From positions 1 through 57,549 of the forward strand of contig JBOHSY010000312.1 of the NCBI GenBank assembly GCA_050733355.1: a stretch of 57,549 bases of DNA, given 5' to 3'. This DNA is from Gemmatimonadales bacterium (lineage in GTDB: Bacteria; Gemmatimonadota; Gemmatimonadetes; Gemmatimonadales; GWC2-71-9). Every line of letters starts with the position of its first letter. Position 1 is the stretch's first letter. Below the pieces are notes generated by a model. It was not told where the DNA came from, made no database searches, and saw only the letters and a list, made by a program, of their open reading frames with translations. A program made the position numbers and the translations under genes. This document shows, in pieces, positions 47 to 56,711 of the stretch.

Positions 47-113
47 GTGGGCAGTGAGCGGTGCGCGGTAAGCAGGTTTCGACCCTGCTCACTGCTCCCT
101 GCTTGCTGCTCAC
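47..113. repeat. Composite palindromic element E1: (GTGAGCG-like heptamer)x4, 7-nt loop, (TGCTCAC-like heptamer)x4
   Basis: Left arm 47-76 is GTGGGCA GTGAGCG GTGCGCG GTAAGCA GG. Loop is 77-83. Right arm 84-113 is CC TGCTCAC TGCTCCC TGCTTGC TGCTCAC. About 30 positions pair on the plus strand (3 mismatches, several G-T). The element starts 1 nt after the leuA stop codon. Confidence 0.8.
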
Positions 114-2162: not shown

Positions 2163-6752
<4,590 letters not shown>

Positions 6753-11762: not shown

Positions 11763-11899
11763 GGCGGGAGGGGCGGTAGAGACGGTACGGGCGGTCAGGG
11801 AGCGGCGAGAGTGGGAAGGCGGCCCGGTGGATGCCCCTGCCGGCTTTCGCAGCTGTGCAACCCCGGTACCGCCCGTACCGTCTCTACCGCCCTCCCGCC
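11763..11899. repeat. Composite palindromic element E2: 33/32-nt inverted arms with roughly 9-nt GGCGG periodicity, 72-nt core
   Basis: The left arm is GGCGGGAGGGGCGGTAGAGACGGTACGGGCGGT (11763-11795). The right arm ACCGCCCGTACCGTCTCTACCGCCCTCCCGCC (11868-11899) is its reverse complement apart from a 1-nt indel. The element lies between the ACAD stop (11752) and the queF ATG (11945). Confidence 0.85.
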
Positions 11900-14444: not shown

Positions 14445-14458
14445 CGGAGCCCGGCACC

Positions 14459-14824
14459 TCACGCGGTCCGGCGCCCAGCGATGAACTTGCCCAGAACCCC
14501 GCCGAGTAGACCGCTGACCGCCGAGCCAACGGTTCCGAAGCCGAGCACGGCCGCGGGCACGTCGCCGAGCAGGTACGACACCAGGATGCCGAGGAAGGCG
14601 GAAATGCCGCCCGCGACCGCGCCACCGGCCGCGGCGGCGCCTGCTCCAGCCGGCCGCGCGAGAACCGCGTAAAACACTCCGGCGATCGCCGAGATCGACA
14701 TGCCGCCGGCGGCGAACAGATTGGCGACCGCGGGCGCGTAGTGGCCCGAGACTACCATGGCGAGCTGCAGCAATGTCCCGGCCACCGTGGCCGTGGCGAG
14801 CGGACGGCTGGGCCTGCCGGTCAT
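14459..14824 (-). CDS. Small Gly/Ala-rich integral membrane protein (121 aa)
   Basis: MTGRPSRPLATATVAG..., 3-4 predicted TM helices. Its ATG overlaps the stop of the upstream gene (ATGA at 14821-14824). Confidence 0.55.
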   Translation of the reverse strand: MTGRPSRPLATATVAGTLLQLAMVVSGHYAPAVANLFAAGGMSISAIAGVFYAVLARPAGAGAAAAGGAVAGGISAFLGILVSYLLGDVPAAVLGFGTVGSAVSGLLGGVLGKFIAGRRTA

Positions 14825-15438
14825 TGCTTGCCTCCCTTGGATGCGCTTGTCTCGGCCGTCAGCGCCGTCCAGTCCGCGGGCCCCACCGCGAACCGCCGAT
14901 GCAGTTGCTTCAGCGACCAGTCGTTGCCCCACTCGAAATGCCGGTACAACGTGTCGTACCCCGGGCCCGGCCGATACCCCACCATGGTCTCGATGACGCG
15001 CGTCCGCGTCGAATCGACCGCATCGAGCTCCAGCACGGTGTGGATCCCGGCGAGCAGCGCGCCGTGCTCGAATCCCGGCGTCGCGGACACGACCTGAAAG
15101 GACACCATCCGCTGGGGCACGTAGCTCAGATACCGACTGCGGATGTTGGCGGGATCCCCGATCCGGGCCTTCGGGTCGTAGCTGGATTCCATGATGCCCC
15201 CGACCCGGAGATCGGCCTGTGCCACGGGGACGGCCCAGCTGCGAAGGCCGTCGGACGTGGTGAGCGCCGTCCAGACTTCGCCGACGGAGGCAGGCACGAT
15301 CACCGACTGTTGCAGGACGCGAATGCTGTCCTGGTAGATGTAGGAGGTGTTCCGCACCTCCTGCGCGGCGAGCGGGCCGGCGGCGGGGCCGACGACGGCG
15401 AATGCGAGCGCAAGAACGGCGGATGAGCGCGGCAGCAT
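14821..15438 (-). CDS. Secreted SRPBCC/AHSA1-like domain protein
   Basis: Signal peptide MLPRSSAVLALAFAVVGPAAGPLAAQ. VPASVGEVWTALTTSDGLRSW fits the START/Aha1-like fold N-terminus. The rest of the 320-aa ORF upstream is artefact. Confidence 0.6.
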   Translation of the reverse strand: MLPRSSAVLALAFAVVGPAAGPLAAQEVRNTSYIYQDSIRVLQQSVIVPASVGEVWTALTTSDGLRSWAVPVAQADLRVGGIMESSYDPKARIGDPANIRSRYLSYVPQRMVSFQVVSATPGFEHGALLAGIHTVLELDAVDSTRTRVIETMVGYRPGPGYDTLYRHFEWGNDWSLKQLHRRFAVGPADWTALTAETSASKGGKQ

Positions 15439-15458
15439 GAGAGCCTCGGTGGTGAAGG

Positions 15459-19200: not shown

Positions 19201-19238
19201 CCCGTGTCGCAATGGGGAGACTGAGCAGTGAACGGTAA
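16212..19238 (+). CDS. Ser/Thr protein kinase with TM segment and large TPR-like C-terminal domain
   Basis: GEGGMSVVFRA, AVKML, HRDIKPENILL, DFG and SPEQ motifs. TM segment IGVLGILLAMALGVALWAL. C-terminal TPR-like repeats. GTG start. Confidence 0.85.
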   Translation: MTDAARPSLKLETALAGRYRIEGKLGEGGMSVVFRARDLRHDRAVAVKMLRPELSAALGSERFLREIRIIAGLQHPHILPLHDSGDADGNLYYVMPFVEGESLRQRLDREGALPPADAVRIAREVASALDYAHAHGVVHRDIKPENILLAGPHAIVADFGIARAVDMASGASATATGIVVGTPAYMSPEQAAGETLDGRSDQYSLACVIYEMLSGAAPFAGTTPRELMARHAIEPVPPLSSVKPELPPALSIALARSLEKHPGVRYGSAGSLAAALAGTATPAGATTPVPLPAVPRPRPRIRTIGVLGILLAMALGVALWALHGRSARRTPPVPPTAPGAATAIAVLPFAVSGSDTLGLSEGIVGLLGTKLDGAGDLRVVDPRALLSHVGQERAPRLGPDQGRAVARHFGAGLYVLGDVVQIPGRLRLSAAMYVPDRGEAIARAEAEGDVGRLFELVDDLTAQLLAGWSGRESRVSGIAAVTTSSLPALKAYLEGEAALRDARFDQAIDGFQRAIATDSMFALAWYRLSVAGEWLTRDDLAGPAAERAAQLAGRLPERERRLLEAMRSGRRGAFDEALTRYQAIISTYPEDVEAWIQLAELQFHFGPWRAQSASESRPAWERVLALDPSQIAARVHLARIAAIEGRSGAVDTLVREILALHSAPGRAPGTRSEDLEMETLRAFSIRDTAEQRRVLAELAQASDLTVTLSAWAAASFAYDLPGAISVARVLTQPSRGGTARAVGSLTVAFLEAARGRIGEARRQLALAEAADPERTRTGPALLAVAPFVRTPPAELRRLLARAVAAPPPGPDDDRAGLSVYFRRTPPAQDRRTRLYLAGVLSARLGDRARAAQRAEELSALARSDSGSLAADFAHGIRAELAMTRGNAEEALREVEGMRHETYYITAFAFPELSQARERYYHAEALARLGRPEEALRWFGSFAEFSPYDMLYSAVGHRRRGEILESLGRREAAAQEYAQFIELWKEADPELQPAVREARVAMGRLSSER

Positions 19239-19323
19239 GCGGTGAGCGGTGAGCGGGAGACGAGCCCGTGGGCCCGATTCTGCTGGGGGCCCCCTGCTTA
19301 CTGCTCACCGCTCACCATTTTTT
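19221..19323. repeat. Composite palindromic element E3 (GTGAGCG heptamers) with T6 tract; likely also the kinase-gene terminator
   Basis: Left arm is CTGAGCA GTGAACG GTAAGCG GTGAGCG GTGAGCG (19221-19255), and the kinase TAA (19236-19238) sits inside it. The core holds GGGCCC...GGGCCC. Right arm is CTGCTTA CTGCTCA CCGCTCA CC (19294-19316), then ATTTTTT running into the speA stop (19322-19324). Confidence 0.8.
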
Positions 19324-27019: not shown

Positions 27020-27661
27020 ATGGCCTACGCCGTCAAGGAGATCTACTACACGCTCCAGGGCGAAGGCGCGCAGGCCGGCCGGCCGGCGGTGTTCTGCCGG
27101 TTTGCCGGGTGCAACCTCTGGACCGGCCGCGAGGCCGACCGGGCGTCCGCCGTCTGCGATTTCTGCGACACCGATTTCGTCGGTACCGACGGTCCCGGGG
27201 GCGGGAAGTTCACGGCCGCGGCCGATCTCGCGCGCGCGGTGGACGCCGCCTGGCCCGCGGACGCAGCCGCCGGGGGGCGCAAGTTCGTCGTGTGCACGGG
27301 GGGCGAGCCGCTGCTGCAGCTCGACGCCGAGCTGGTCGGCGCGCTGCACGAGGCGGGATTCCAGGTGGCGGTGGAGACCAATGGCACTCAGGATCCTCCG
27401 GCGGGGCTGGATTGGATCTGCGTGAGCCCGAAGGCCGGCGCCGAATTGCGGCTCCGGTCCGGCGACGAGCTGAAGCTCGTCTATCCCCAGCAGGGCGCGG
27501 AGCCCGCGCGTTTCGAGCGGCTCGACTTTCGGCACTTCTTCCTCCAGCCGATGGACGGGCCGGAGCGCGACGCCAACACCCATGCCGCGCTGGTCTACTG
27601 CCTGGCGCATCCGCGCTGGCGGCTGAGCCTTCAAGCTCATAAGCTTCTCGGAATTCCGTAG
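27020..27661 (+). CDS. queE: 7-carboxy-7-deazaguanine synthase (radical SAM)
   Basis: KEIYYTLQGEG, then Cys spacing C-x14-C-x2-C (GCNLWTGREADRASAVCDFC). It starts 4 nt after queC. Confidence 0.9.
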   Translation: MAYAVKEIYYTLQGEGAQAGRPAVFCRFAGCNLWTGREADRASAVCDFCDTDFVGTDGPGGGKFTAAADLARAVDAAWPADAAAGGRKFVVCTGGEPLLQLDAELVGALHEAGFQVAVETNGTQDPPAGLDWICVSPKAGAELRLRSGDELKLVYPQQGAEPARFERLDFRHFFLQPMDGPERDANTHAALVYCLAHPRWRLSLQAHKLLGIP

Positions 27662-27776
27662 GGCGGGAGAGGGCGGGAGAAGGCGGCAGCGGGCGGGAGC
27701 GGCTGCAAAACGAGCCTCCTGAGTGCCCTGTCCATCTCCCGCCCGCTCCCGTCCGCTCCCGACCACTCCCGCCCCG
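27660..27776. repeat. Composite palindromic element E4: (GGGCGGGAGA-like decamer)x4, 32-nt core, (CTCCCGCCCG-like decamer)x4
   Basis: Left arm 27661-27703, core 27704-27735 (contains CGAGCCTCC), right arm 27736-27775. About 32 of 38 positions are complementary. It spans from the queE stop to 6 nt before the HD-gene ATG. Confidence 0.85.
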
Positions 27777-33221: not shown

Positions 33222-33434
33222 ATGGCTCGCACCACTGGCACGGTGAAGTGGTTCAACGACGCGAAGGGGTTCGGCTTCATCACCCCGGAGAACGGCGACA
33301 AGGACTGCTTCGTCCACCACACCGCCATCAAGATGGACGGCTTTCGCAGCCTCACCGAGGGCGAGAGAGTCGAGTTCGACATCGTGCAGGGTGCGAAGGG
33401 CCCCGCTGCCGAGAACGTGACGAAGGCGAAGTAA
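33222..33434 (+). CDS. cspA: Cold-shock protein (CspA family)
   Basis: [15 protein letters not shown] (RNP1) and DCFVHH (RNP2), 70 aa. SD CAGGAG. Confidence 0.95.
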
Positions 33435-33435
33435 A

Positions 33436-33604
33436 CGGTATCGGCTATCCGCTATCGGCTATCGGCTATCCGCCTGTTCCGATGCATGCGAGCCTCCGAG
33501 GTCCCTAGGGCACCGGAGGCTCTCGCACGTTCGGAGCAAGCGGATAGCGGATGGCCGAAAGCGGATAGCGGATAGCGGATAGCGGATAGCCGATAGCGGA
33601 TAGC
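33436..33604. repeat. Composite palindromic element E5: (GCTATCS)x5, 66-nt core with GAGCCTCCG/CGGAGGCTC hairpin, (GCGGATA)x9
   Basis: Left heptamers 33437-33471. Core stem 33490-33498 / 33514-33522. Right heptamers 33540-33602. It fills the gap between the cspA stop (ends 33434) and the infA stop (starts 33605). Confidence 0.9.
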
Positions 33605-33823
33605 CTACTTGTGCCTGTAGATCACCCGTCCCCGGGTAAGATCGTAGGGCGAGAGCACGACGGTTACGCGGTCGCCTTCCAGCACCCGGATCTTGAACTT
33701 GCTCATCTTGCCGGCGGCGTACGCGAGGATCTCGTGACCATTCTCCAGCATGACCCGGTAGTTGCGGTCCGGGAGCACCTCGGTCACCACTCCCTCCATC
33801 TCGATGCCTTCTTCCTTGGCCAT
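33605..33823 (-). CDS. infA: Translation initiation factor IF-1
   Basis: [72 protein letters not shown], 72 aa, S1-like fold. SD GGAGAG. Confidence 0.95.
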
Positions 33824-35613: not shown

Positions 35614-35960
35614 TGCGAGCCTCCAGACAGGCCGTGAACCGGAGGAAACTCGCCGAAGTGCTCCACCAGCGCAAACGCGGCGCGCACCGCTCGCGGTCCG
35701 GGGGCTCGCTCGCATTGCCGGGCCGCCGTGAGCAGCGCCGGCCGGATCCTTGCCGCACGCGCCGCGCACGTCGCGCCGCAGCGCTCGACGTGCTCGAGGT
35801 GCAGTTCGACGATAGCCCGCGTGCCGAGCCGGGATGGAACGTCGACAGCGGCGAATGCGGCCCGCGGCTTCAGCACCCAGGTGAGCCCCGGCAGGAGACC
35901 CGCCGCGCCCACCAGGAGCCCGATGGCGCGGCGGCGCGAGCAGGCCAGCCGCGGGCTCAC
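35610..35960 (-). CDS. Small hypothetical exported/membrane-anchored protein (116 aa, 4 Cys)
   Basis: GTG 35960 overlaps the DUF2339 TGA, and its own TGA overlaps the pepF GTG (two GTGA junctions). N-terminus VSPRLACSRRRAIGLLVGAAGLLPGLTWVL looks like a signal/TM segment. GC3 is high in this frame. Confidence 0.45.
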   Translation of the reverse strand: MSPRLACSRRRAIGLLVGAAGLLPGLTWVLKPRAAFAAVDVPSRLGTRAIVELHLEHVERCGATCAARAARIRPALLTAARQCERAPGPRAVRAAFALVEHFGEFPPVHGLSGGSQ

Positions 35961-37837
35961 GTGGGGTCCGGGCTCGAGCCCTGCGCGTGCCGGTGGTAGA
36001 GATAGGCGAGCAGCAGCGACACGAGGCCGAGGATGAACACCGAGGCGACCCGGTACAGCGCATCGAGCGAAGCCAGATCGAAGACCAGCACCTTGAGCAC
36101 GGCGAGCCCGGCCACGCACAATCCAGCGAGCCGGGCGGGCCGGATGCCGCGGCGGAGCCCGAGCGTCACGAGCCCCGCGGCGAATACGAGCCACCAGGCG
36201 CTCACCGACAGCCCGCTCGCGAGCGAGGCGGTGGCTCGCGTAGGCGCCTCCAGGCGGAAATACCGCCGGATCTCTTCGGTGACGCCGAACAGCGCCAGGG
36301 CACCCGCGACGAGCCAGAGGCCGCGGCAGACCAGTCGCGCGGCGTCGTTGAGCGGCACTCGCTTCCAGAGCCCGGCGGCAAGGGCGGTGGTGACGCCGAG
36401 GGCGAGCCACTGGACCCCGGCCCAGGCGCCGGTGAACGCCCGCTCGTGATAGTCGCGCCGCGAGGCGTCCGCGTCGTACAGATGCGCGAGCGCGAGCGCC
36501 AACGTGCCCACCGCGTACCAGCGTCCGTCGCTCCGTCCGAGCCGATGGTCGAGCGCCGCCCAGAGCGCCGTGAGGCCGAGCAGCACGAGCGTCGCCTCGA
36601 GCCCGGTCCAGCGCTCCAGCGCGGCCACGGCGAGCGCGGCCGCGCCCACGAAGGCGAACGCCGGGCGCGGACTCGTGTAGCCGACCACGAGATAGGGAAC
36701 CGCCACCACCAGCGCGGCGAGCCCATCGTGCTCGGCGAAGATGGTGGGCGCCAGGGTCCGGACGGCCCAGCCGAGCAGCACCGGGGTGGCAAAGAAGTAG
36801 AGCGCCTCGCCCGGCGACCAGCGGTCTCGCCGCAGGAGGCCGTGACGCCAGACCGGCGCCGCGAGCAGGAGGCCGGCAACGAAAATGGGCCAGCGCGGGT
36901 GCAGCCGCTCGGCGACGGTGGCGAGCAGCGCCCAGCCGCCCCAGAACGCGAGGAAGCGCGTCTCCCACCACCGCTCGCGCAGCCCGACCCATACGCCTCC
37001 GGCCCCGCCGAGCACCGCGTACGCGAGCGCGCCCGCGGGCCGCCGCGACTGGGCGGCGGCGGCCCAGCCGAGGCTGAAGAAGCTCACCGCGATTGCCGCC
37101 ATGGTGTAGCGCCACCGGCGGCGGGCGGCGACCCAGCCAAGCGCGGCGGCCATCGAGCCCTGGTACAGGAGCAGGAGATCGGCGTCGGCGCGCTCCCGTC
37201 CCAACAGCACCGGTGCGACGAACGCGCCGAGCACTGCCGTGAGTCCGAGCGCCTCGACGTCGATGGCGTAGGCGATGGCCGCGAGGGACAGCGCGACGAG
37301 CGCGAGCCCGGCGATGCCGGTGGTCGGGGGCAGGAAACCGTAGAGCCGCGCGGCCGCCCAGACCGACAGGTAGATGATCGCCGCACCGCAGCCGATGAGC
37401 GCGGCGCCGTAGATGCGATAGCGGCCGTGCAGCCGCCAGCCCAGCGCGCCGACGCCGACGCCGGCCAGCACGCCGCCGGCACACCGCATCGCGGGTGAGA
37501 TCCAGCCCCGGTCGAACGACAGCTTGAGCAGATAGCCGGCCGCGAGAATCAGCGCGAAGACGCCGACGGCGAGGAGGCCGCGCTGACCGATCCACTGCTC
37601 GAAGGGGCGAGAGGCCGGGAGCGGGCGGGAGCGGACGGGAGAGGGAGGGATCGGGGGAACCGGCGGCGGCGCCAGAACCGGTGGAGCCGACATCGGCGTA
37701 GTCGCGTCTTCCGGCTCCCGCCCGCTCCCGCCCGCTCCCGCCCTTTCCCGACTGCCGGCGGTCGCGAGGTCCCGCACCAGCGACTCCAGCACCGCCATGC
37801 GCTGCTCCAGCCGGTCCAGCCGTTCGTCCACCGACAT
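35957..37837 (-). CDS. DUF2339-family polytopic membrane protein
   Basis: N-terminal coiled-coil MSVDERLDRLEQRMAVLESLVRDL, a Pro-rich linker, then about 16 TM segments. SD GGAGG 5 nt upstream of ATG 37837. Confidence 0.75.
   Translation of the reverse strand: MSVDERLDRLEQRMAVLESLVRDLATAGSRERAGAGGSGREPEDATTPMSAPPVLAPPPVPPIPPSPVRSRPLPASRPFEQWIGQRGLLAVGVFALILAAGYLLKLSFDRGWISPAMRCAGGVLAGVGVGALGWRLHGRYRIYGAALIGCGAAIIYLSVWAAARLYGFLPPTTGIAGLALVALSLAAIAYAIDVEALGLTAVLGAFVAPVLLGRERADADLLLLYQGSMAAALGWVAARRRWRYTMAAIAVSFFSLGWAAAAQSRRPAGALAYAVLGGAGGVWVGLRERWWETRFLAFWGGWALLATVAERLHPRWPIFVAGLLLAAPVWRHGLLRRDRWSPGEALYFFATPVLLGWAVRTLAPTIFAEHDGLAALVVAVPYLVVGYTSPRPAFAFVGAAALAVAALERWTGLEATLVLLGLTALWAALDHRLGRSDGRWYAVGTLALALAHLYDADASRRDYHERAFTGAWAGVQWLALGVTTALAAGLWKRVPLNDAARLVCRGLWLVAGALALFGVTEEIRRYFRLEAPTRATASLASGLSVSAWWLVFAAGLVTLGLRRGIRPARLAGLCVAGLAVLKVLVFDLASLDALYRVASVFILGLVSLLLAYLYHRHAQGSSPDPT
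37604..37750. repeat. Composite palindromic element E8 (GCGGGCGGGA decamers) lying in frame inside the DUF2339 CDS
   Basis: Left decamers are GAGGCCGGGA GCGGGCGGGA GCGGACGGGA GAGGGAGGGA (37611-37650). Right decamers are CCGGCTCCCG CCCGCTCCCG CCCGCTCCCG CCCTTTCCCG (37711-37750). At least 23 of 25 nt are complementary in the best register. It has the same unit and orientation as E4. Confidence 0.8.
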
Positions 37838-39095: not shown

Positions 39096-40798
39096 CCCGC
39101 CGCGCCGCCCCGCCGGTCCGCCGCGGCCGCGAACACCAGGGCGCTCAGCACCATCAGCACGACGCCGTACGCGGCTGCCACGCCCACGTCGGCCTGACGG
39201 AGACTGGACAGGATCTCGAGCGAGATCGGCCGGGTATCGTAGGTGTAGAGCACGATCGAGGTCACGAAGTCGCCAAGCGCCGTGACGAACGCCAGGGTCC
39301 CGCCCGCCACGAGCGAGGGGCGTAGCAGCGGCAGGGTGACCGCCGCGAGCGTGCGCCAGCGTCCGGCGCCGAGCGCCGCGGCGGCCTCGTCGAGCGATGG
39401 GTCGAGCGCCCGGAAGCCGGCCAGCGTGGCGCGGCTGGTGAGCGGCAGACTGCGAACCAGATAGGCGAGCGGGAGGATCCACACGGTGCCCACCAGGATC
39501 CAGCGCCCGGCCAGGGGCTCGCGCACGCTGAACGCGGTGGCGAGCGCGATGGCGAATACCGTTCCCGGCACGGCCCACGGGAGGCCGAGGAGCGCCTCGA
39601 GGATCCGCCGGCCGGGCGCCCGGCGGCGCACCACCAGAACCGCGGCCAGGACGGCGATCGCGATCGATACGGCCGTCGCCGCCGTCGCGAGCCCGAGGCT
39701 GTTGAGCAGCGGACGCAGGCGCACGGGATCCCGCACCAGCGTGGCGTAGTTGCCCAGCGTCCAGGCCGGCGGGATGGCCTCCGTGGTCCAGGTGCCGACC
39801 GGGACGAGCGACACCACGAACAGCGTCAGGTGCGGCAGGAGGAGCAGGCCCGCGAGCCCCCAGGAGAGGAACGCGAGCCCGGCGCGCGCGAGAGGCCGGC
39901 GCACCCGGACGGGCGCCGGCGCAGCGCCCTTTCCCCCGCCCCGCGCCGGCTCGCGGTCGGCATCGCGGAAGAGAACCAGCGCCGCGAGCGCGAGCACCGT
40001 CAGCGACACGGTCTCCACCATCGCCAGCGCCTCCTCGCCGTTGAGACGGGTGGCCACGATCTGCGTGGTCATCACGCGGTATCCGCCGCCGAACACGTAC
40101 GGGGCGCTGAACGAGGCGAGCGACGTCATGAAGGTGAGCAGCGCCGCCCCGGTGAGGGCGGGCCGCAGCGCGGGCAGAACGACCTGGCGGAGCGTCCGCC
40201 AACGGCCGGCCCCGAGGCTCGCGGCCGCCTCGAGCTGCGCCCCGTCGAGCGACAGGAGCGCGGCGCGCACCAGCAGGTAGAAGTACACGTACATCGAGTA
40301 CGCGTGCACCAGCAGGATCGCGCCCGCGCCCTCGAGCCGCCACGGCGGCTCCTCGAGACCGAGTGCCGCCTGCACCGCGCGGGCCAGGAAGCCGGACTCG
40401 CCGTAGAGAAAGAGGAACGCGACGACGCCCACCAGCGGCGGGAGCACGGCGGGGAGCGCCACGATCCCCGCCAGGAGCCGCCGGCCCGGAAAATCGTAGC
40501 GGGCGAACAGCACAGCGAGCGGTATGCCGACCAGCGCCGCGAGCAGGACACTCGCCAGGGACACGAGCAGGCTGCCCCTGAGTGCCTGCCACTCGGTGGG
40601 CCGCGCGGCGAACTCCCGCACATGCTCGAGCGTCCAGCCGCCGGGCCCGTGCACGCCTTCGACGAACACGAGCATCAGCGGATAGATCACCAGCCACGAC
40701 AGGAAGAGCAGAAGAGCAGAGGAGCCGAAGAGCCGGGGTGCTGCGCGGGGCCTTGGGCGGTCGAGCCGGCTGTCCGGCACATCTGCCCTTCCGCTCAT
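39092..40798 (-). CDS. ABC transporter permease, fused two-domain type (Fe3+/thiamine-family architecture)
   Basis: 568 aa with two homologous 6-TM halves, as in FbpB/ThiP-type permeases. The ATG overlaps the ATPase stop (ATGA at 40795-40798). Confidence 0.85.
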   Translation of the reverse strand: MSGRADVPDSRLDRPRPRAAPRLFGSSALLLFLSWLVIYPLMLVFVEGVHGPGGWTLEHVREFAARPTEWQALRGSLLVSLASVLLAALVGIPLAVLFARYDFPGRRLLAGIVALPAVLPPLVGVVAFLFLYGESGFLARAVQAALGLEEPPWRLEGAGAILLVHAYSMYVYFYLLVRAALLSLDGAQLEAAASLGAGRWRTLRQVVLPALRPALTGAALLTFMTSLASFSAPYVFGGGYRVMTTQIVATRLNGEEALAMVETVSLTVLALAALVLFRDADREPARGGGKGAAPAPVRVRRPLARAGLAFLSWGLAGLLLLPHLTLFVVSLVPVGTWTTEAIPPAWTLGNYATLVRDPVRLRPLLNSLGLATAATAVSIAIAVLAAVLVVRRRAPGRRILEALLGLPWAVPGTVFAIALATAFSVREPLAGRWILVGTVWILPLAYLVRSLPLTSRATLAGFRALDPSLDEAAAALGAGRWRTLAAVTLPLLRPSLVAGGTLAFVTALGDFVTSIVLYTYDTRPISLEILSSLRQADVGVAAAYGVVLMVLSALVFAAAADRRGGAAG

Positions 40799-41886
40799 CT
40801 GCTCTCCCGCTCCTCAGCGAAGAGATGGATTCCGCCCCCGCTGCGTCGGCTCGGCGCGAGGCCCACTCGATCGCCGGGATGCGCGGCGCTGCCGGGGCCG
40901 CTCACCTCGAGCAGTGTGCCCGCGTCGGTGCGCAGCAGATACAGCGAGTTCGCCCCCGCGAACCGCCGCTCGAGCACCATCGCGGCCAGGAGGCCGGGGT
41001 CCGGCCGGGCGAGCCAGAGCGCTTCGGGCCGCAGCAACACTCGCACCGCGCTCCCGACCTCGAGCGCGCGCTGTACGCCGGCGTCGGCCGGCACGCCCCA
41101 GACGCAGCTCTCGACCCCGACCCGCGCGCCCTCCGCCGTGAGGTCGAGGATCCGGCCCCGCAGCTCCGACGCGCGGCCGACGAACCGTGCCACGAATGGG
41201 CAGGCCGGAGCGTCATACAGCTCGTCGGGCGTGCCCACTTGCTCGAGCCGGCCGTCTCTGAGCACGGCCACCCGATCGCCGAGATCGAACGCCTCCTCCT
41301 GCTCGTGGGTCACGAGCACGGTGGTGATGCCGACCCGGCGGATCACGTCCCGGAGCTCGTGCCGCGTGCGCTCGCGAAGGGTGGGGTCGAGGTTGGAGAG
41401 CGGCTCATCCAGCAGCAGGACCCGCGGCTCGGGCGCGAGCGCCCGCGCCACGGCGACCCGCTGCTGCTGCCCGCCCGAGAGCTGGGCGATCCGGCGACGC
41501 TCGTAGCCGGCGAGATCCACCAGCGCGAGCGCCTTCGCGACCCGGTGCTCGAGGTCGCCGCCGCGTACCCCGAGCGACTCGAGACCGAACGCGATGTTGT
41601 CGCCGACATCGAGATGAGGAAACAGCGCGTAGTGCTGGAAGACCATTCCGAAGCGGCGGGCCGCAGGCGCGAGAGGGGTGACGTCGGCGCCCTCCACGAG
41701 GACCCGGCCGGCATCCGGCGCCTCGAATCCCGCGAGGAGGCGGAGCGTGGTCGTCTTGCCACTGCCGCTCGGCCCGAGCAGTGCCAGGATCTCGCCACGC
41801 GCGAGCGCGAGCCACACGTTGTGCACGGCGACCTGATCGCCGAATCGGCGCGTCAGGCCCTCGAGCGAGAGGAACGCCTCGGTCAC
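40795..41886 (-). CDS. ABC transporter ATP-binding protein (FbpC/PotA-like with C-terminal TOBE-like region)
   Basis: Walker A GPSGSGKTT, signature LSGGQQQRV, Walker B LLLDEP. GTG 41886 overlaps the SBP stop (GTGA). The ORF is open to 41931. Confidence 0.88.
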   Translation of the reverse strand: MTEAFLSLEGLTRRFGDQVAVHNVWLALARGEILALLGPSGSGKTTTLRLLAGFEAPDAGRVLVEGADVTPLAPAARRFGMVFQHYALFPHLDVGDNIAFGLESLGVRGGDLEHRVAKALALVDLAGYERRRIAQLSGGQQQRVAVARALAPEPRVLLLDEPLSNLDPTLRERTRHELRDVIRRVGITTVLVTHEQEEAFDLGDRVAVLRDGRLEQVGTPDELYDAPACPFVARFVGRASELRGRILDLTAEGARVGVESCVWGVPADAGVQRALEVGSAVRVLLRPEALWLARPDPGLLAAMVLERRFAGANSLYLLRTDAGTLLEVSGPGSAAHPGDRVGLAPSRRSGGGIHLFAEERESR

Positions 41887-42932
41887 GGCCGGCCGGTATG
41901 GCGCACGTGCCGGTCCCAGTAGCTCATCCATGCGGGGCCCCGGGAGGATGCGAGCTCCCAGTCCATCTCCGCCACCACCATCTCACGCTCCACCTCAGCC
42001 ACCCACGCAGGCACGCGGTCCGGCGGCAGATCGCGGCGCGCCGGGAGGCGGAACACCCCGCTGGCGGCGAGAAGCTGGCCGTCCACGCTGCCGACGAAGT
42101 CGATGAAGGCCCGGGCCACCTCGGGATGACGGCTCCCGCGCACCAGCCCGATCGCGTCGTCGATCACCACGGTTCCGCTCCGGGGAAAGACGTAGTCGAA
42201 CGGCATGCCCTTCGACCGGCCGATCAGGATGTCGGGCAGGTCCCAGAGCGTGACCAGGCCCTCCTGCCGCGCGAGCTTGGCGTCCAGTACCGCGGGGTTA
42301 AGCGCGTATGCCCTGGTCTGCGCGTCGAGCCTGCGGAGCCACGCCATCCCCTGCGCGGTATCCCCGGTCTCGCGGATGCTCCGCACCAGGATTAAGGCCC
42401 AGATCGCCCGCATGGTACCGCTGGCCATCGGGTCGCGGATCAGCACCTTGTCGGTCCAGCGGGGGGCGAGCACTTCGTCCCAGTCGTGCGGCGCCGTGGC
42501 GCGGGTGACCGCGCGCGCGTTGAAGGCGATGACTGCCGGTGTCCGGTACGCCGGATAGTAGAGATCGGCCGGCCCCGCCGCGCGACTGTCCACGGCCCCG
42601 GCCCACGCGGGGCGGTACGGCGCCAGCAACGAGTCCCGGACGCCGCGTTCGAACAGGGTGGTAGGCCCGCCGAACCAGACGTCGGCCTGCGGGTTGACCC
42701 GCTCGAAGCGGAGCCGGTCCAGGATCTCCTGGCTGCCCATGTCGAGCCAGCGTACGTCCACGGCGGGATGCCGTCGCTCGAACTCGCGCTCGAGCAGCGT
42801 GAGCTGATCCCGGCCATGGGGCGAGTAGAGCAGGAGGGGTGTTCGGTCGTCACGCGCGCATCCGAGCAGCGCGAGCAGCAGCAAAAGCAGTTCACACCGA
42901 GGCGCGGAGAACAACTTTCCGCGTGGTCTCAC
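41883..42932 (-). CDS. ABC transporter periplasmic substrate-binding lipoprotein (family 1, Fe3+/thiamine/polyamine-like)
   Basis: GTG 42932 gives VRPRGKLFSAPRCELLLLLLALLGC (lipobox LLGC). LLLYSPHG...DVWFGG is typical of this SBP class. The start is uncertain (alternative GTG at 42956). Confidence 0.72.
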   Translation of the reverse strand: MRPRGKLFSAPRCELLLLLLALLGCARDDRTPLLLYSPHGRDQLTLLEREFERRHPAVDVRWLDMGSQEILDRLRFERVNPQADVWFGGPTTLFERGVRDSLLAPYRPAWAGAVDSRAAGPADLYYPAYRTPAVIAFNARAVTRATAPHDWDEVLAPRWTDKVLIRDPMASGTMRAIWALILVRSIRETGDTAQGMAWLRRLDAQTRAYALNPAVLDAKLARQEGLVTLWDLPDILIGRSKGMPFDYVFPRSGTVVIDDAIGLVRGSRHPEVARAFIDFVGSVDGQLLAASGVFRLPARRDLPPDRVPAWVAEVEREMVVAEMDWELASSRGPAWMSYWDRHVRHTGRP

Positions 42933-43023
42933 GTCCAGGCATCCAGCATCTTGCACATGAGGCCCCGATAATGGCGGTTCTCCGCGTCCTCCGCGCCTCG
43001 GTGTGAACCTCTCGGAGCCCGGC

Positions 43024-47744: not shown

Positions 47745-50564
<2,820 letters not shown>

Positions 50565-50706
50565 CCGCTATCCGCTATCCGCTATCCGCTTGGAGTAGGC
50601 GAGCCTCCGTGTCCTTGGACATCGGAGGCTCACTTGCTTCGGGGCACGCGGATAGCGGATAGCGGATAGCGGATAGCGGATAGCGGATAGCGGATAGCCG
50701 ATAGCG
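50565..50706. repeat. Composite palindromic element E6: (GCTATCC)x3, 58-nt core with GAGCCTCCG/CGGAGGCTC hairpin, (GCGGATA)x7 + GCCGATA
   Basis: Left heptamers 50567-50587. Core stem 50601-50609 / 50623-50631. Right heptamers 50648-50703. It fills the gap between the acnA stop (ends 50564) and the sigma-factor stop (starts 50707). It has the same unit, core and orientation as E5. Confidence 0.9.
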
Positions 50707-51600
50707 CTACGCTACAAAATCCCGAATCCGGTCGCCGGTGTCCCCTACGCGCAGGCGGAGCAGCGCGCGGTCGCGGAGCTGGCGAATGCGCTCGCGGGTA
50801 ACCCCCATCATCCGGCCGATCTCCTCGAGCGTGCGGCTGTTGCCGTCGTCCAGGCCGAAGTAGAGCCGGAGCACCTTGGCGTCGCGCGGCGGCAGCGTGG
50901 CGAGCGCGAGCTCGATGTCCCGGGTCTGGCTGTTCACGAGCGTGGAGGCGTCGGTGCTCTCCTGCTCGCCGGTGGAGAACCGCTCGATCCGCTCGTTGCC
51001 TTCGCCGTCCCGGGTGGGATGGTCGAGCCGGACCGCTTCGGAGTTGAGGGCGCTGAGGCTCCGCACCGCCTCGACCGTGAGCCCGGTGGCGCGGGCGAGC
51101 TCTTCGGTGGTCGGCATGCGGCCGAGCCGGTCCTTGAGCAGCGTCGTGGTACGACCCAGCCGGCTCAGGTCGGCCGTGCGGTTGAGCGGCACCCGGACCG
51201 GGCGGCCGTGCCGGGCGATGGCGGCCTGCACCGCCTGCCGGATCCACCAGACCGCGTAGGAGATGAACTTGACGCCGCGGTCCGGATCGAACTTGCGCGC
51301 CGCCGTCATCAGCCCGAGGTTCCCCTCGCCGATCAGGTCGACGAGCGGCACGCCCCGGTTCTGGAACTTCTTGGCCACCGACACGACGAAACGCACGTTG
51401 TGCCGCGCCAGCCGCTCCTGGGCGACGACGCTGCCCTTGAACGCCTTGCGCGCGAGCTCCATTTCCTCCTCGCGATTGAGAAGGGGGACCCTGCTGATTT
51501 CATCCAGATAAAGGTCGAGACTCTCTCTGCCTTCGTCCACTGCGCGAGCGATCTGGGCCGGCCGGACCGGGCGCCGCTTGGCACGTGGCTTCACACTCAC
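50707..51600 (-). CDS. RNA polymerase sigma-70 family factor (group 2/3-like, 297 aa)
   Basis: Region 2 (FISYAVWWIRQAV) and region 4.2 (TLEEIGRMMGVTRERIRQL). GTG start with SD GGAGGA. Confidence 0.9.
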   Translation of the reverse strand: MSVKPRAKRRPVRPAQIARAVDEGRESLDLYLDEISRVPLLNREEEMELARKAFKGSVVAQERLARHNVRFVVSVAKKFQNRGVPLVDLIGEGNLGLMTAARKFDPDRGVKFISYAVWWIRQAVQAAIARHGRPVRVPLNRTADLSRLGRTTTLLKDRLGRMPTTEELARATGLTVEAVRSLSALNSEAVRLDHPTRDGEGNERIERFSTGEQESTDASTLVNSQTRDIELALATLPPRDAKVLRLYFGLDDGNSRTLEEIGRMMGVTRERIRQLRDRALLRLRVGDTGDRIRDFVA

Positions 51601-53399: not shown

Positions 53400-54805
53400 C
53401 CTACGGGCTGGTGCAGGCGGCCTACCTCGTGGCGACGGCGCTGTTCGTCTTCGCGCTGCACTGGATGAACCACCCGAAGACCGCCCGTCGCGGGGTGTCC
53501 GCGGGCGTGGCGGGCATGGCGATCGCGGTCATCGCCACGTGGGCGCAGCCCGCGATCGTGCACCACGTCTGGATCGTCGTGGCAGTCATCGCGGGGTTCG
53601 GGGTCGGCGTTCCGCTCTCGATGGTGCCGCTCACGGCGGTGCCGCAGCGGACCGCGCTGTCGCACGCGTTCGGCGGCCTCGCGGCCGGCCTCGTGGGCGC
53701 GGCGAAGTATTACCTCTGGCTGGGCGACGCCCCCGAACAGCTCACCGCGTTCCGCATGACCGCGATCATCATCGAGATCATCCTGGGCTTCCTGACCTTC
53801 ACCGGAAGCCTGATGGCAGCGGGCAAACTGCAGGAGGTGAAGTGGATCCCGCAGCGGCCGGTCACCTATCCGCTTCAGAACGTCACCAACCTGGCGCTCT
53901 TCCTCCTCGCGGCCGCGATCGGGGTGGCGCTCGCGATGAACCCGACCGCCGACTGGGCACCTCGGGTTTTCCCCATCATCATCGTCCTCGCGCTCCTCTT
54001 CGGCATCCTGCTGATCATCCCGATCGGGGGCGCGGACATGCCGACCGTGATCGCGATCCTCAACGCGTACGCGGGGCTCGCGGCGGTGGCGATGGGTTTC
54101 GTGCTGGACAACAAGCTGCTGATCACGGCCGGCGCGCTCGACGGCTCGAGCGGGCTCATCCTCGCCATCATCATGTGCAAGGCGATGAACCGCTCGTTCA
54201 CCAACGTGCTGTTCGGCGCGTTCGGCCAGGTGCAGCAGCTCAAGGCAGGCGGCGAGCAGCAGCAGTACAAGTCCGAGACCATCGAGGGCGCCGCCCAGGT
54301 GCTGGAGCAGGCACACACGGTGGTGATTGTCCCGGGCTACGGCATGGCGGTGGCCCAGGCGCAGCACAAGGTGCGCGAGCTGTACGACCAGCTGCGGAAG
54401 CGTGGCATCACCGTGAAATTCGCCATCCACCCGGTGGCGGGCCGCATGCCGGGCCACATGAACGTGCTCCTCGCCGAGGCGGACATCCCGTACACCGATC
54501 TCGTGGAGATGGACGAGATCAACCCCGATATGCCCCAGTGTGACGTGGCGCTGGTTGTGGGCGCGAACGACGTCGTGAACCCGGCGGCGCGCAGCGACAA
54601 GTCGAGTCCCATCTTCGGCATGCCGATCATCGACGCCGATAAGGCACGCACCGTGTTCGCGATCAAGCGGAGCAAGAACCCCGGCTTCGCGGGGATCGAC
54701 AACGCGCTCTACTTCTCCGACCGCACCTGGATGCTGTTCGGCGACGCCAAGGGGGTCGTCGGCGAGCTGGCCAAGCAGATGAGCGGGAACAGCGCAATGC
54801 ACTAG
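53396..54805 (+). CDS. pntB: NAD(P) transhydrogenase subunit beta
   Basis: ATGA overlap with pntAB. Membrane dII-b plus C-terminal dIII (VIVPGYGMAVAQAQH, HPVAGRMPGHMNVLLAEA). Confidence 0.93.
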   Translation: MTYGLVQAAYLVATALFVFALHWMNHPKTARRGVSAGVAGMAIAVIATWAQPAIVHHVWIVVAVIAGFGVGVPLSMVPLTAVPQRTALSHAFGGLAAGLVGAAKYYLWLGDAPEQLTAFRMTAIIIEIILGFLTFTGSLMAAGKLQEVKWIPQRPVTYPLQNVTNLALFLLAAAIGVALAMNPTADWAPRVFPIIIVLALLFGILLIIPIGGADMPTVIAILNAYAGLAAVAMGFVLDNKLLITAGALDGSSGLILAIIMCKAMNRSFTNVLFGAFGQVQQLKAGGEQQQYKSETIEGAAQVLEQAHTVVIVPGYGMAVAQAQHKVRELYDQLRKRGITVKFAIHPVAGRMPGHMNVLLAEADIPYTDLVEMDEINPDMPQCDVALVVGANDVVNPAARSDKSSPIFGMPIIDADKARTVFAIKRSKNPGFAGIDNALYFSDRTWMLFGDAKGVVGELAKQMSGNSAMH

Positions 54806-54887
54806 GATGGCCAGATGGTCGGATGGTCAGACGATCGGTGTGAGGCTGGCCCTTCGGATCATCTGACCATCGGTCCCTCCGACCAGC
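54806..54887. repeat. Composite palindromic element E7: (GATGGTCN octamer)x4, 16-nt core, (complementary octamer)x4
   Basis: Left arm is GATGGCCA GATGGTCG GATGGTCA GACGATCG (54806-54837). Right arm is CGGATCAT CTGACCAT CGGTCCCT CCGACCAG CC (54855-54887). It fits exactly between the pntB TAG (54803-54805) and the convergent gene's stop (54888-54890). Confidence 0.8.
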
Positions 54888-56711
54888 CTACAGCGGCAGT
54901 CTCAGTCCCGGTATCTGGATCCCGGCGGTCAGGTCTTTCAGTTCCCCGCGGAGCTGCTGCTCGACCTCCTCCAGCTTCTGCCGCTCGGCCTCCACTCGCT
55001 GCCGTCCCTCGGTCTCCACCGCCGCCACCTGCTGCCGCACCTCTTCGGTCTTGGCCGCGACGAGCTTGTCCACCTCCGCTCGGACCTTCTGCTCCGCCAT
55101 TGCCAGCTCCTCCCCCACCACGGCCTGCAGCCGGGCGCTCACCGCCTGGTCCAGGTTGGTGCTCACCCCCAGCTTCGGCGCCTTCACGGTCCCGGAGAGC
55201 ACGGCGGTGACGCGGAGATCGGTGAGGCCCGAGAGCACCCGCCACACGATCCGCTCGATCTCGTTCAGTCGCCGCGCGCTGGTATCCACCGTCCACTGTA
55301 CCTTGTTCGACGCGACCGACCACCGCCCGCGGATCTCGTCGCCGCGGAGCACGAACGAGAGCCCGCTCCGGCCCGATCCCGGATCGAGCCGCACCGGCAG
55401 GCCGGGCAGATTGAACGCCGGGAGACCGACGCCGTCGGCGATTGCGCTGATGGAATCGCGCGTGCGGGTGGTCAGATGGTCGAGCACCGCATCCACCCGC
55501 AGGGCGGCGAGCACCGGGCCGTCCGCCCGCCTCCGGGCGGAGATCACCGTCGGCTTTCCGTAGAGCGCGGGAGCCGAGGTGAGCCCGCGAACAGTCGCCG
55601 CATACCTGCCGGCGAGCACGCCTTCACCCGCGAGGGTGAAGTCGACGTTGCCCGCCTCCAGCAGGAACGAGGGATAGGTCCGCTCCTTGGGAAACCGCAC
55701 CGTACTGCCGGCCATCCGCAGCCGGTCGGGCCCGGTGGTCTCGCGAGGCAGCAGTCCGGGCGGCATGTAGTGGCGGCCGAGCTGCACCCAGTACATGGCC
55801 TGCTGAAAGCGCTCGACGCTTACCTGCCCGAAGAACGCCTTGCCGATCGCGGGTGCGGCGAACGAGGGAAGCTGGAGCAGGCTCCGGGCGAACTCGTAGT
55901 CGCGGCGCCGCGCTTCGTCGACTTCCTTCAGGCCCGCGCCGAGCTGGTTCACGCCGCGGAGGGCGTCCTTGCCGAGGGTCTCGATCTGCCGCTTGGCGTC
56001 CTCGACCTGTCGGATGCTCCGCTGCACCGACGCAATGGCGTCCCGCGTGCCCTGGATTCCGAGCGTCCGCGGGTTCAGCGTGTCGAGCCGGGCCACGAGC
56101 GCCCGTGCCGAATCGATAGTGGGCCCGACGGGCACGCCGCGGAGCCCCTGCTCGATGGCGCGCCGGGTCGAGTCGGTGCGTGCGGCGAGCGACGTGGCGG
56201 CCTGCACCGTGCCGAGCTTGGTCGGATCCAGCGCGAGCGCACGGATCGTGTCGATCGGCGTGAGCTTGAGCAGCGGCACGTCGAACTGGCTGGCCCACTG
56301 CCGCACCGCCCGCACCATCTGGGGCGCGAAGCCGTCCCCGCGCGCGGGGCGGGCCGGCGTCTCCCGCTTGGTCCCGAACTGCATGCCGCGGAGCGCCAGG
56401 TTCCGAACCACGAGCTTCTTCTCGGCGAGCGCCTCCGGGTCCACCGTGAGGTGCACGCTTCCGGCCTCCACGAGGTTCCGGCTCATGTCGAACGGATCGG
56501 CCACCTCGATCCGCCAGAGGTCCGCGCCGATCTCCCGCGGCCTGAGGTCGAGCTTGCTCACGTCCACCTGGGTGCCGAGCAGGTCGGTGCTCACGTCCTC
56601 CGTGGTCTCCTCGGCCACCGGCTCGGCGAAGAGTACCCCCAGCACGCCGATGCCGATGAGCGCCAGCAGCAGCGGTGCGATCGCCTTCCAGCGGAAGATC
56701 TTGATCTGCAC
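54888..56711 (-). CDS. TIGR03545-like family protein (N-terminal TM anchor, long helical/coiled-coil protein, 607 aa)
   Basis: MQIKIFRWKAIAPLLLALIGIGVLGVLF anchor and C-terminal coiled coil. Size and pairing with a DUF2062-like partner match my recollection of the TIGR03545/TIGR03546 pair. Confidence 0.6.
   Translation of the reverse strand: MQIKIFRWKAIAPLLLALIGIGVLGVLFAEPVAEETTEDVSTDLLGTQVDVSKLDLRPREIGADLWRIEVADPFDMSRNLVEAGSVHLTVDPEALAEKKLVVRNLALRGMQFGTKRETPARPARGDGFAPQMVRAVRQWASQFDVPLLKLTPIDTIRALALDPTKLGTVQAATSLAARTDSTRRAIEQGLRGVPVGPTIDSARALVARLDTLNPRTLGIQGTRDAIASVQRSIRQVEDAKRQIETLGKDALRGVNQLGAGLKEVDEARRRDYEFARSLLQLPSFAAPAIGKAFFGQVSVERFQQAMYWVQLGRHYMPPGLLPRETTGPDRLRMAGSTVRFPKERTYPSFLLEAGNVDFTLAGEGVLAGRYAATVRGLTSAPALYGKPTVISARRRADGPVLAALRVDAVLDHLTTRTRDSISAIADGVGLPAFNLPGLPVRLDPGSGRSGLSFVLRGDEIRGRWSVASNKVQWTVDTSARRLNEIERIVWRVLSGLTDLRVTAVLSGTVKAPKLGVSTNLDQAVSARLQAVVGEELAMAEQKVRAEVDKLVAAKTEEVRQQVAAVETEGRQRVEAERQKLEEVEQQLRGELKDLTAGIQIPGLRLPL

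Follow-up and report, generated by a model that had tools for sequence, protein, structure and literature searches.

In a 57,549-nt stretch of DNA from a Gemmatimonadales bacterium (assembly GCA_050733355.1, contig JBOHSY010000312.1, hereafter the window), the gap between the convergent genes cspA and infA is occupied by a 169-nt palindromic element at positions 33436–33604, in which a central hairpin is enclosed by two inverted arrays of 7-nt units. We place this element in a dispersed family of the Gemmatimonadales, here called the GCGGATA family, whose members carry a conserved core of ~65 nt with an inverted 7-nt-unit array on either side. The family in turn belongs to a wider class with the architecture (unit)n-core-(reverse-complement unit)m and units of 7–10 nt, which gathers in transcribed 3′ and intercistronic space and occasionally sits in-frame in disordered linkers. 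The reading we favour, to which we give about an even chance of being right, is that 33436–33604 is a dispersed, slippage-prone palindromic simple sequence repeat (SSR) element that is tolerated in 3′ space and that here probably forms the 3′-end hairpin of both genes. The class is already known, with its function unexplained, and is here extended to a new phylum and to new units and periods; it is not a categorically new element. What the present analysis adds is the replacement of one family by another at orthologous gaps, single-unit changes at the strain level, in-frame copies in coding sequence, a conserved core in dispersed copies and an apparent terminator replacement.

An earlier note on this DNA had described a heptamer-array hairpin filling the whole cspA/infA gap, and the sequence, Tandem Repeats Finder (TRF), folding and the open-reading frames (ORFs) all bear this out. 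Read directly and with TRF, the element consists of about five GCTATCS units, the central hairpin and about nine GCGGATA units (Table 1), with TRF placing the left array at 33439–33470 (period 7, 4.6 copies, 92% matches) and the right array at 33539–33604 (period 7, 9.4 copies, 86% matches). It occupies the gap from stop codon to stop codon, that of infA lying at 33605–33607 (CTA on the plus strand), and thereby places a GC-rich stem-loop at the gene 3′ end. A 181-nt stretch folded as one nested hairpin on both strands, at −115.1 kcal/mol on the plus strand (z −11.1) and −104.1 kcal/mol on the minus strand (z −8.2), with none of 200 dinucleotide shuffles folding as well, so the fold suggested earlier is significant on either strand. 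The left arm pairs best (97%) with the outer units of the right arm, and the hairpin therefore has several pairing registers and unequal arms (5 vs. 9 units).

The core recurs at unrelated positions. Five GCGGATA elements at three non-orthologous loci (cspA/infA, acnA/sigma and L021; compared loci are designated by L and a number) align through the whole three-tier core, the members of the alignment being the window elements at 33436 and 50565 together with L001, L198 and L021, and orthologous cores are closer to one another than paralogous cores. A covariance model (R1) scores 70–94 bits on five GCGGATA-family elements, and in 867 kb it returned no further strong copies beyond its training set and weak matches. 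A second family with a homologous core comprises the window element at 42890–43008, its orthologue at L198 988–1094 and a paralogue at L060 2131–2310; judged from these alignments, at least two families are dispersed. In one metagenome-assembled genome (MAG) the GCGGATA arms also surround quite different cores, which plain copying of whole elements does not predict.

The same gap holds different contents in relatives, which are 78–90% identical in nucleotide sequence (average nucleotide identity, ANI) to the window. A custom scan, which admits hairpins whose A/T tracts pair with each other, detected a GC-stem and T-tract hairpin in the cspA/infA gap of 30 of 34 relatives, 22 of which have it in both directions, and the gap of the window gave no such hairpin. 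L003 and L005 have a canonical bidirectional terminator alone and no element, L001 and L004 have a canonical terminator beside a GCGGATA element with the core seen in the window (truncated in L004), and L002 combines the terminator with GCGGATA-type arms around another core. Five distant relatives (L127, L132, L133, L136 and L138) carry an unrelated GGTCTAG array hairpin, and short TAGGCGGN arrays flank the terminator itself in L156. The window is the sole case of an element standing alone in this gap, without a terminator.

Other gaps have similar histories. The pntB/DUF748 gap is filled in L198 (Gemmatimonadales MAG SD8034) by a perfect (GATGGTCR)3-CGTC-(YGACCATC)3 hairpin, which takes up all 51 nt, and contains (GAAGAGCA)4/(TGCTCYTC)6 in L197, the closest relative (90% ANI), this being the unit family found at window positions 40703 and 4253. 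Between the queE-like and HD-domain genes an array hairpin is present in all six genomes, of the 10-mer family in four and of a 9-mer family in L002 and L004, whilst the acnA/sigma gap of L200 holds a bare core hairpin (CGAGCCTCCGG-GAGA-CCGGAGGCTCG) that matches R1 weakly. Compared in this way, congeneric genomes have, at one and the same gap, retained an element, changed its size, exchanged it for one of another unit family or lost it. Exact-protein look-ups gave no orthologues of the 11763, 19221 and 47 loci, and the comparisons cover the other elements. As a separate observation, the L197 contig begins exactly at the site of the window's 50565 element, only 93 nt from the stop codon of the sigma-factor gene; the visible 93 nt (L197 1–93) form a different simple hairpin, GAAGCCCTCCC-GGGG-AGGGAGGGCTC, and the contig start may be a repeat-caused assembly break.

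Unit-count polymorphism between sister strains, which the earlier note had predicted, was seen: near-identical strains differ by 1–2 units and in one arm only (three units in L149 vs. four in L146–148), and in another array the count is 4, 5 or 6 among L146/L148/L149, L147 and L150. Such comparisons show that slippage adds units to the arrays and removes them, each arm changing independently of the other. The arms remain near-perfect mirror images all the same; at 11771–11795 and 11868–11892 they are complementary at 25 of 25 positions, though units within one arm are only ~74% alike, and in L146 a variant unit is mirrored exactly in the opposite arm. The concerted evolution across the hairpin proposed earlier therefore stands for the mirror symmetry and fails for the copy numbers, which differ between arms at cspA/infA and, around the same core at acnA/sigma, change from 4.6/8.4 units in the window to 6/3 in L198 and L199. 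We suggest that the symmetry is upheld because both arms make up one stem, through hairpin-templated (quasi-palindrome) template switching or through selection for pairing.

Ten elements of this architecture lie in the window (Table 1). The seven other sites listed earlier all exist by TRF, sequence and arm pairing, though the one at 54806 reaches only z −2.5, and two elements had been missed, at 40702–40815 and 42890–43008. They do not make up a single eight-member family: several sites share a unit (33436 with 50565, core included; 47 with 19221, GTGAGCG; 27660 with 37604, a GGGCGGGAGN-type 10-mer), which gives about five unit families of one class, with one site coding and both 54806 and the additional 40702 marginal. 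The architecture is non-random: in the window, TRF combined with a reverse-complement partner test found 5 inverted array pairs by strict criteria, against 0 in 50 dinucleotide shuffles, and arrays of period 6–12 number 31 against a shuffle mean of 6.8. Location at gene 3′ ends is borne out in general. One site, 37604–37750, lies within the DUF2339 coding region. Protein and DNA comparison with L001, L003, L004 and L005 showed the reading frame to be conserved on both sides of this array, which has 6 units in L004 vs. 3 in the window, a 30-nt change that stays in frame. At the position of the degenerate window element 40702, L001 has a clean (GGCGGACA)n hairpin, and at 50559–50707 the acnA stop codon falls within the first repeat unit. 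The 3′ arm of 42890–43008 seemingly includes the GTG start of a lipoprotein signal peptide and could occlude translation initiation. Separately, four copies of the 8-mer GGAAGAGC lie in frame in the gltB-like ORF at 4253–4285, encoding ...GRAEEPRSRRAEG..., with no inverted partner seen; their unit family recurs at 40703 and in the pntB/DUF748 hairpin of L197.

Table 1 The cspA/infA element, its flanking genes and the other array hairpins of the window (z, folding z-score)
Feature	Position	Strand	Context or basis	z
cspA-like cold-shock-domain (CSD) gene, 70 aa	33222–33434	+	ORF; TAA stop 33432–33434; PF00313 CSD on identical protein in relatives	
Left arm, ~5 tandem heptamers GGTATCG GCTATCC GCTATCG GCTATCG GCTATCC	33436–33471		Sequence	
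Conserved core	33472–33539		Middle stem CTGTTCCGA / TTCGGAGCA; apical hairpin GAGCCTCCG (33490–33498)-AGGTCCCTAGGGCAC-CGGAGGCTC (33514–33522), GAGCCTCCG paired with CGGAGGCTC	
Right arm, ~9 tandem heptamers GCGGATA with variants GCGGATG, GCCGAAA, GCCGATA	33540–33604			
infA (IF-1, 72 aa)	33605–33823	−	ORF; PF01176 in relatives; tblastn	
Heptamer (GTGAGCG-type) array hairpin	47–113		Directly 3′ of leuA (stop 115–117)	−6.1
9-mer (GGCGGTAGG) array hairpin	11763–11899		Tandem gap, acyl-CoA dehydrogenase stop (11752) to queF start (11945)	−9.5
Heptamer (GTGAGCG) array hairpin	19221–19316		Ser/Thr kinase / speA convergent gap; first 18 nt coding	−5.1
10-mer (GGGCGGGAGN) array hairpin	27660–27776		Between radical-SAM (queE-like) stop codon and HD-domain gene ATG (27782)	−5.8
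10-mer array hairpin inside DUF2339 ORF (35957–37837, minus strand)	37604–37750		Variable low-complexity linker, in frame	−5.7
Degenerate 8-mer (GAAGAGCA) array hairpin	40702–40815		ABC ATPase/permease junction, overlaps permease N-terminus coding sequence	−2.0
9-mer GCGGAGRAC array hairpin	42890–43008		Between PIG-L and solute-binding-protein genes, overlaps likely start of latter	
Sister copy of GCGGATA family, (CGCTATC)4.6-homologous core-(GCGGATA)8.4	50559–50707		acnA/sigma-70 convergent gap	−10.2
8-mer (GATGGTCR) array hairpin, eroded in window	54803–54890		Fills pntB/DUF748 convergent gap	−2.5 (weak)

The genes beside the elements are housekeeping genes (leuA, gltB, acyl-CoA dehydrogenase, queF, Ser/Thr kinase, speA, the queE-like radical-SAM gene, cspA, infA, acnA, a sigma-70 factor and pntB), and an element exactly fills each of the window's four clear convergent gaps (19238/19322, 33434/33605, 50564/50707 and 54805/54888). 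Proteins homologous to the PntAA of the window are annotated as Gemmatimonadales. The 47–113 element adjoins the leuA stop codon, and those at 11763 and 27660 lie in co-directional gaps. Across 848 kb of Gemmatimonadota contigs, where gene calls outside the annotated loci are crude and the gap counts rest on a GC3-based caller (third-codon-position GC content), elements were found in 20 of 147 convergent, 17 of 421 tandem and 3 of 120 divergent gaps. The three divergent cases are one orthologous locus, and of 25 calls labelled intragenic several are false positives or N-terminal linkers.

The class extends well beyond this lineage. Among the matches listed for exact (GCGGATA)3 in species-representative genomes there are more than 111 stretches in many phyla, and carriers include isolates (Povalibacter uvarum, Dialister and a complete Kiritimatiellota genome) as well as long-read MAGs; an assembly artefact was therefore rejected as the source of the arrays. 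The (GCGGATA)3 loci hold 251 period-7 arrays vs. 17 of period 8 and 9 of period 6, with 113 of the 251 made of other units. An inverted partner lies within 200 nt of 124 of 296 arrays at these loci (10 of 296 in the control), and in the Gemmatimonadales lineage of 33 of 41 (1 of 41 in the control). The GCGGATA unit is multi-copy in single MAGs, for example at no fewer than seven loci of SD8034. One cultured and experimentally tractable carrier is Povalibacter uvarum DSM 26723, which has (GCGGATA)n arrays (L029 1660–2027 and L041 4277–4637), one of them a full inverted pair that lies between genes and surrounds a core of ~140 nt.

Arrays of this kind also occur on predicted phage contigs in IMG/VR (L203 3332–3699, L206 1266–1626 and L207 4322–4682), with the heptamers TATCCGC, TGTCCGC, GCTGACA and GCTATCT, some of them adjacent or inverted, and the class is therefore not confined to chromosomes. 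Array matches in the viral collection numbered 7 for GCGGATA, 3 for GGGAATC and 3, 1 and 1 for three arbitrary control heptamers; a special, conserved status for GCGGATA is not supported, control permutations forming viral arrays as well. Two nested arrangements were also noted. Gammaproteobacteria MAGs (L023 4889–5450, and also L016, L103 and L105) show symmetric nesting of the form (GCGGATA)4-(GTGAGTC)4-loop-(ACTCACA)4-(TATCCGC)4, in which one position per unit differs between the inner arms, such that G-U pairing arises on the minus strand alone, where both flanking genes are encoded. In MAG SD8034 (L050 6516–7857), a nested (TATCCGC)7 and (YGACCGA)4 array and its mirror image lie 1.2 kb apart around a 398-aa ORF, which is either a gene in the ‘loop’ of an element or a gene between two half-elements; considered as a candidate mobilising enzyme, the ORF had no Pfam match and no transposase-like features.

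The earlier note did not recognise the family and found the matched arrays unexplained by ordinary terminators, by several known repeat elements or by CRISPRs. That nothing known accounts for the architecture is not supported, the closest precedent being the inverted GGGAATC heptamer pairs of Xanthomonas (Rehm et al. 2015, PMC4692102). These number 70–75 inverted pairs per genome, lie mostly ≤50 bp from a stop codon or overlap it, and often have co-oriented or convergent ORFs on either side but seldom divergent ones; sister species differ in the length of the repeat with its type preserved, the pairs are not tied to insertion sequence (IS) elements, and they have been interpreted as G-quadruplex (G4) formers (PMC4692102). 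Both a head-to-tail array of at least 2–4 units of ~7 nt and a nearby reverse-complement array in convergent orientation are present at 33436–33604, and the likeness extends to the location at stop codons, the rarity in divergent gaps and a copy number that varies at a kept locus. The GGGAATC unit itself is found in a Gemmatimonadota relative, as an inverted pair (L146 3950–4062, L147, L148 and L149 7681–7787) that differs by one unit between strains and lies in a gap labelled divergent by the crude gene caller. Unlike those of Xanthomonas, the elements described here have other units, periods of 8, 9 and 10 as well as 7, a different phylum, a multi-tier conserved core common to dispersed copies and, in one case, a position in place of a canonical terminator; 33436–33604 also lacks a G4 motif, a feature that belongs to the published interpretation of the Xanthomonas repeats and not to the architecture.

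Short arrays of a genome-specific heptamer that are overwhelmingly intergenic, phylogenetically scattered and of unexplained function are likewise described for the cyanobacterial STRR repeats, cited with a general excess of heptamer SSRs in bacteria in PMC4692102 and PMC4679880, and for the TAACTGA repeats of Beggiatoaceae, which lie upstream of start codons (PMC4679880). They are mostly single direct arrays, whereas 33 of the 41 arrays of the present lineage are accompanied within 200 nt by an inverted partner, and the arrays lie at 3′ ends. Among long SSRs, those of the heptamer class show the greatest over-representation in many bacteria, and the present lineage gives an unusually clean view of them, with gaps filled from stop to stop, unit families replaced between congeners and one natural terminator-replacement experiment.

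Repetitive extragenic palindromes (REPs), together with BIME and REPIN elements, are the best functional analogue and the source of our working model, with proposed roles in mRNA 3′ stabilisation and termination (PMC3733652, PMC3116915). The earlier note had ruled REPs out; the elements do behave like dispersed palindromes of REP/REPIN type (PMC3733652), being mostly downstream of genes and sometimes intragenic, with several families per genome and strain-variable abundance. The differences are structural: REP units are 20–40 bp with 5–13-bp stems, carry an unpaired GTAG/CGTC tag, are not internally periodic and are linked to RAYT transposases, whereas here stems of 30–45 bp are built of tandem units, with arms of 35–65 nt and a whole element of 169 nt. 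The CTAC that follows the right arm at 33605 and 50707 is the neighbouring gene's TAG stop codon plus one base and is absent in the orthologue L198, and no consistent tag is apparent. As a genome-wide REP-like word GAGCCTCC was rejected, with 49 occurrences vs. a mean of 76 for permuted 8-mers.

Other known systems fit in part. A GC-rich stem-loop exactly between convergent stop codons, where relatives carry a bidirectional intrinsic terminator, resembles such a terminator, but there is no A/T tract beside the stem, which is far longer than usual and has several registers. MITEs (miniature inverted-repeat transposable elements), including the in-frame RPE elements of Rickettsia, likewise have inverted repeats at their ends, with a short non-coding core between them, show insertion polymorphism and are now and then found in frame within genes; here, however, the inverted repeats are SSR arrays that vary unit by unit, with the same arms around unrelated cores. 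Identity as a MITE was rejected, as none of the copies has direct repeats on its flanks and the palindrome extends into stop codons. A CRISPR array was also rejected, the units being 7 nt long, contiguous and in both orientations vs. repeats of 24–48 nt with unique spacers of similar length. Rfam 15 gave no match at the gathering threshold in the whole window, in line with the earlier expectation, and a permissive scan gave only chance hairpin matches, such as mir-1282, whose 22.5 bits fall short of the threshold of 107.

Under the reading we favour, elements would persist beside stop codons because a large stem-loop is harmless or useful there, and the one at 33436–33604 would have replaced the canonical bidirectional intrinsic terminator which relatives retain in the cspA/infA gap. 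By analogy with REPs, it may serve as the 3′-end stem-loop of both convergent transcripts, acting as a read-through barrier and/or as a block to 3′ exonucleases or an RNase III site; cspA and infA are probably highly expressed. A number of observations weigh against this. No T/U tract follows the hairpin in either direction and no terminator-like site was found at 33400–33650, so 33436–33604 is not a canonical intrinsic terminator. Most relatives have no element in this gap, a canonical terminator coexists with the element where both are present, which means that the element is not needed there for termination, and the window's terminator loss amounts to one event. The elements of tandem gaps show no bias towards folding on the transcribed strand (roughly 5 vs. 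8), and the alignments of the GCGGATA-family core and of the 27660 orthologues contain only one compensatory pair each, so that nothing specifically indicates selection on RNA. Copies within coding regions are better accounted for by a mutational or selfish process at the DNA level than by a role in termination. Finally, all sequences used for comparison come from MAGs or metagenome contigs, and assembly errors could lie behind some of the unit counts, though the arrays are shorter than typical reads.

An alternative is selfish, non-autonomous mobile DNA of REPIN or MITE type, copied between loci by a transposase or recombinase without benefit to the host. Such DNA would insert in 3′ intergenic space and disordered linkers, or be tolerated nowhere else, and the terminator would have been lost from the window incidentally. 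We regard this as plausible but rather unlikely. Homologous arms and core occur at three or more unrelated loci in different genomes, orthologous gaps differ by presence or absence and by family replacement, copies lie in frame inside genes, as reported for REPs and Rickettsia RPE elements (PMC3733652), and the multiple GCGGATA copies in SD8034 and the arrays on viral contigs point the same way. Set against this, no boundary shows a target-site duplication, neither the window nor the gene tables of related loci contain a transposase, and no RAYT was found either in the 57.5 kb of the window or among related loci with ~100 kb of annotated sequence; unrelated cores within the same arms in one MAG, the failure of R1 to recover further strong copies and single-unit changes, which are the behaviour of SSRs and not of transposition, also tell against mobility. 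The elements could also have arisen where they stand, as a neutral by-product in which 3′ hairpins gain short duplications and slippage with hairpin-templated repair inflates the arms up to the coding sequence, with neither mobility nor function. Slippage favours units of ~7 nt, and this account, which we think improbable, would accommodate arrays that end exactly at stop codons, the bare core hairpin of L200, the short arrays around a canonical terminator in L156, the dominance of heptamers in many phyla, the viral arrays of control heptamers and the lack of RNA strand bias with little covariation. It leaves unexplained the same unit together with the same 65-nt core at unrelated loci, the genome-specific dominant units and the replacement by an unrelated unit family between genomes of 90% ANI.

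Two further possibilities carry little weight with us. The arrays may not be passive products of slippage but the work of a sequence-specific activity, so far unrecognised and spreading horizontally, that writes or maintains them, e.g. an enzyme that adds repeats from a template or processes hairpins, or a dedicated binding factor. This would explain genome-specific dominant units, the same arms around unrelated cores, the symmetric nesting in L023 and the recurrence of GCGGATA and GGGAATC in a dozen phyla and on phage contigs. This is weakened by the 1–3 viral arrays of the control heptamers vs. 7 for GCGGATA, and no candidate gene was seen; we consider it very improbable. Least credible, and scarcely to be entertained, is a structured binding or non-B-DNA array that regulates its neighbours, whether through G-quadruplexes or through periodic sites for a single-strand binding factor, e.g. 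cold-shock proteins (~7 nt each). The 7-nt period equals the CSD footprint discussed in PMC4679880 and the 33436 element lies just downstream of a csp gene, but canonical G4 motifs are confined to the two 10-mer elements (27660 and 37604), the other eight of ten, including 33436–33604, lacking them on either strand, and a G-quadruplex explanation was accordingly rejected for most elements. Unit sequences and periods (7–10 nt) moreover vary between elements, the G-rich or the C-rich arm comes first depending on the family with no common polarity, and the neighbours are unrelated housekeeping genes.

If the hairpins do define transcript 3′ ends, as the 3′-end reading would have it, they would have to be taken into account when terminators are predicted and operons called in Gemmatimonadota and other high-GC phyla. 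The elements are also likely causes of assembly breaks, and as hypervariable loci they would be useful for strain typing. Across the window as a whole there is no excess of canonical terminators. Its only textbook intrinsic terminator, on the plus strand at 2117–2143 (GGCCCGCTCCAG-ATG-CTGGAGCGGGCC followed by TTTTTGTTGC), lies between the divergent genes leuA and gltB, either just upstream of the large gltB-like ORF or inside its 5′ end, and might be an attenuator or mark where a small RNA ends. Elsewhere, a stretch of ~1 kb from the citrate synthase gene to a TetR gene (14445–15458) has no frame with the strong GC3 signal of other genes, and may be non-coding, a pseudogene or recently acquired.

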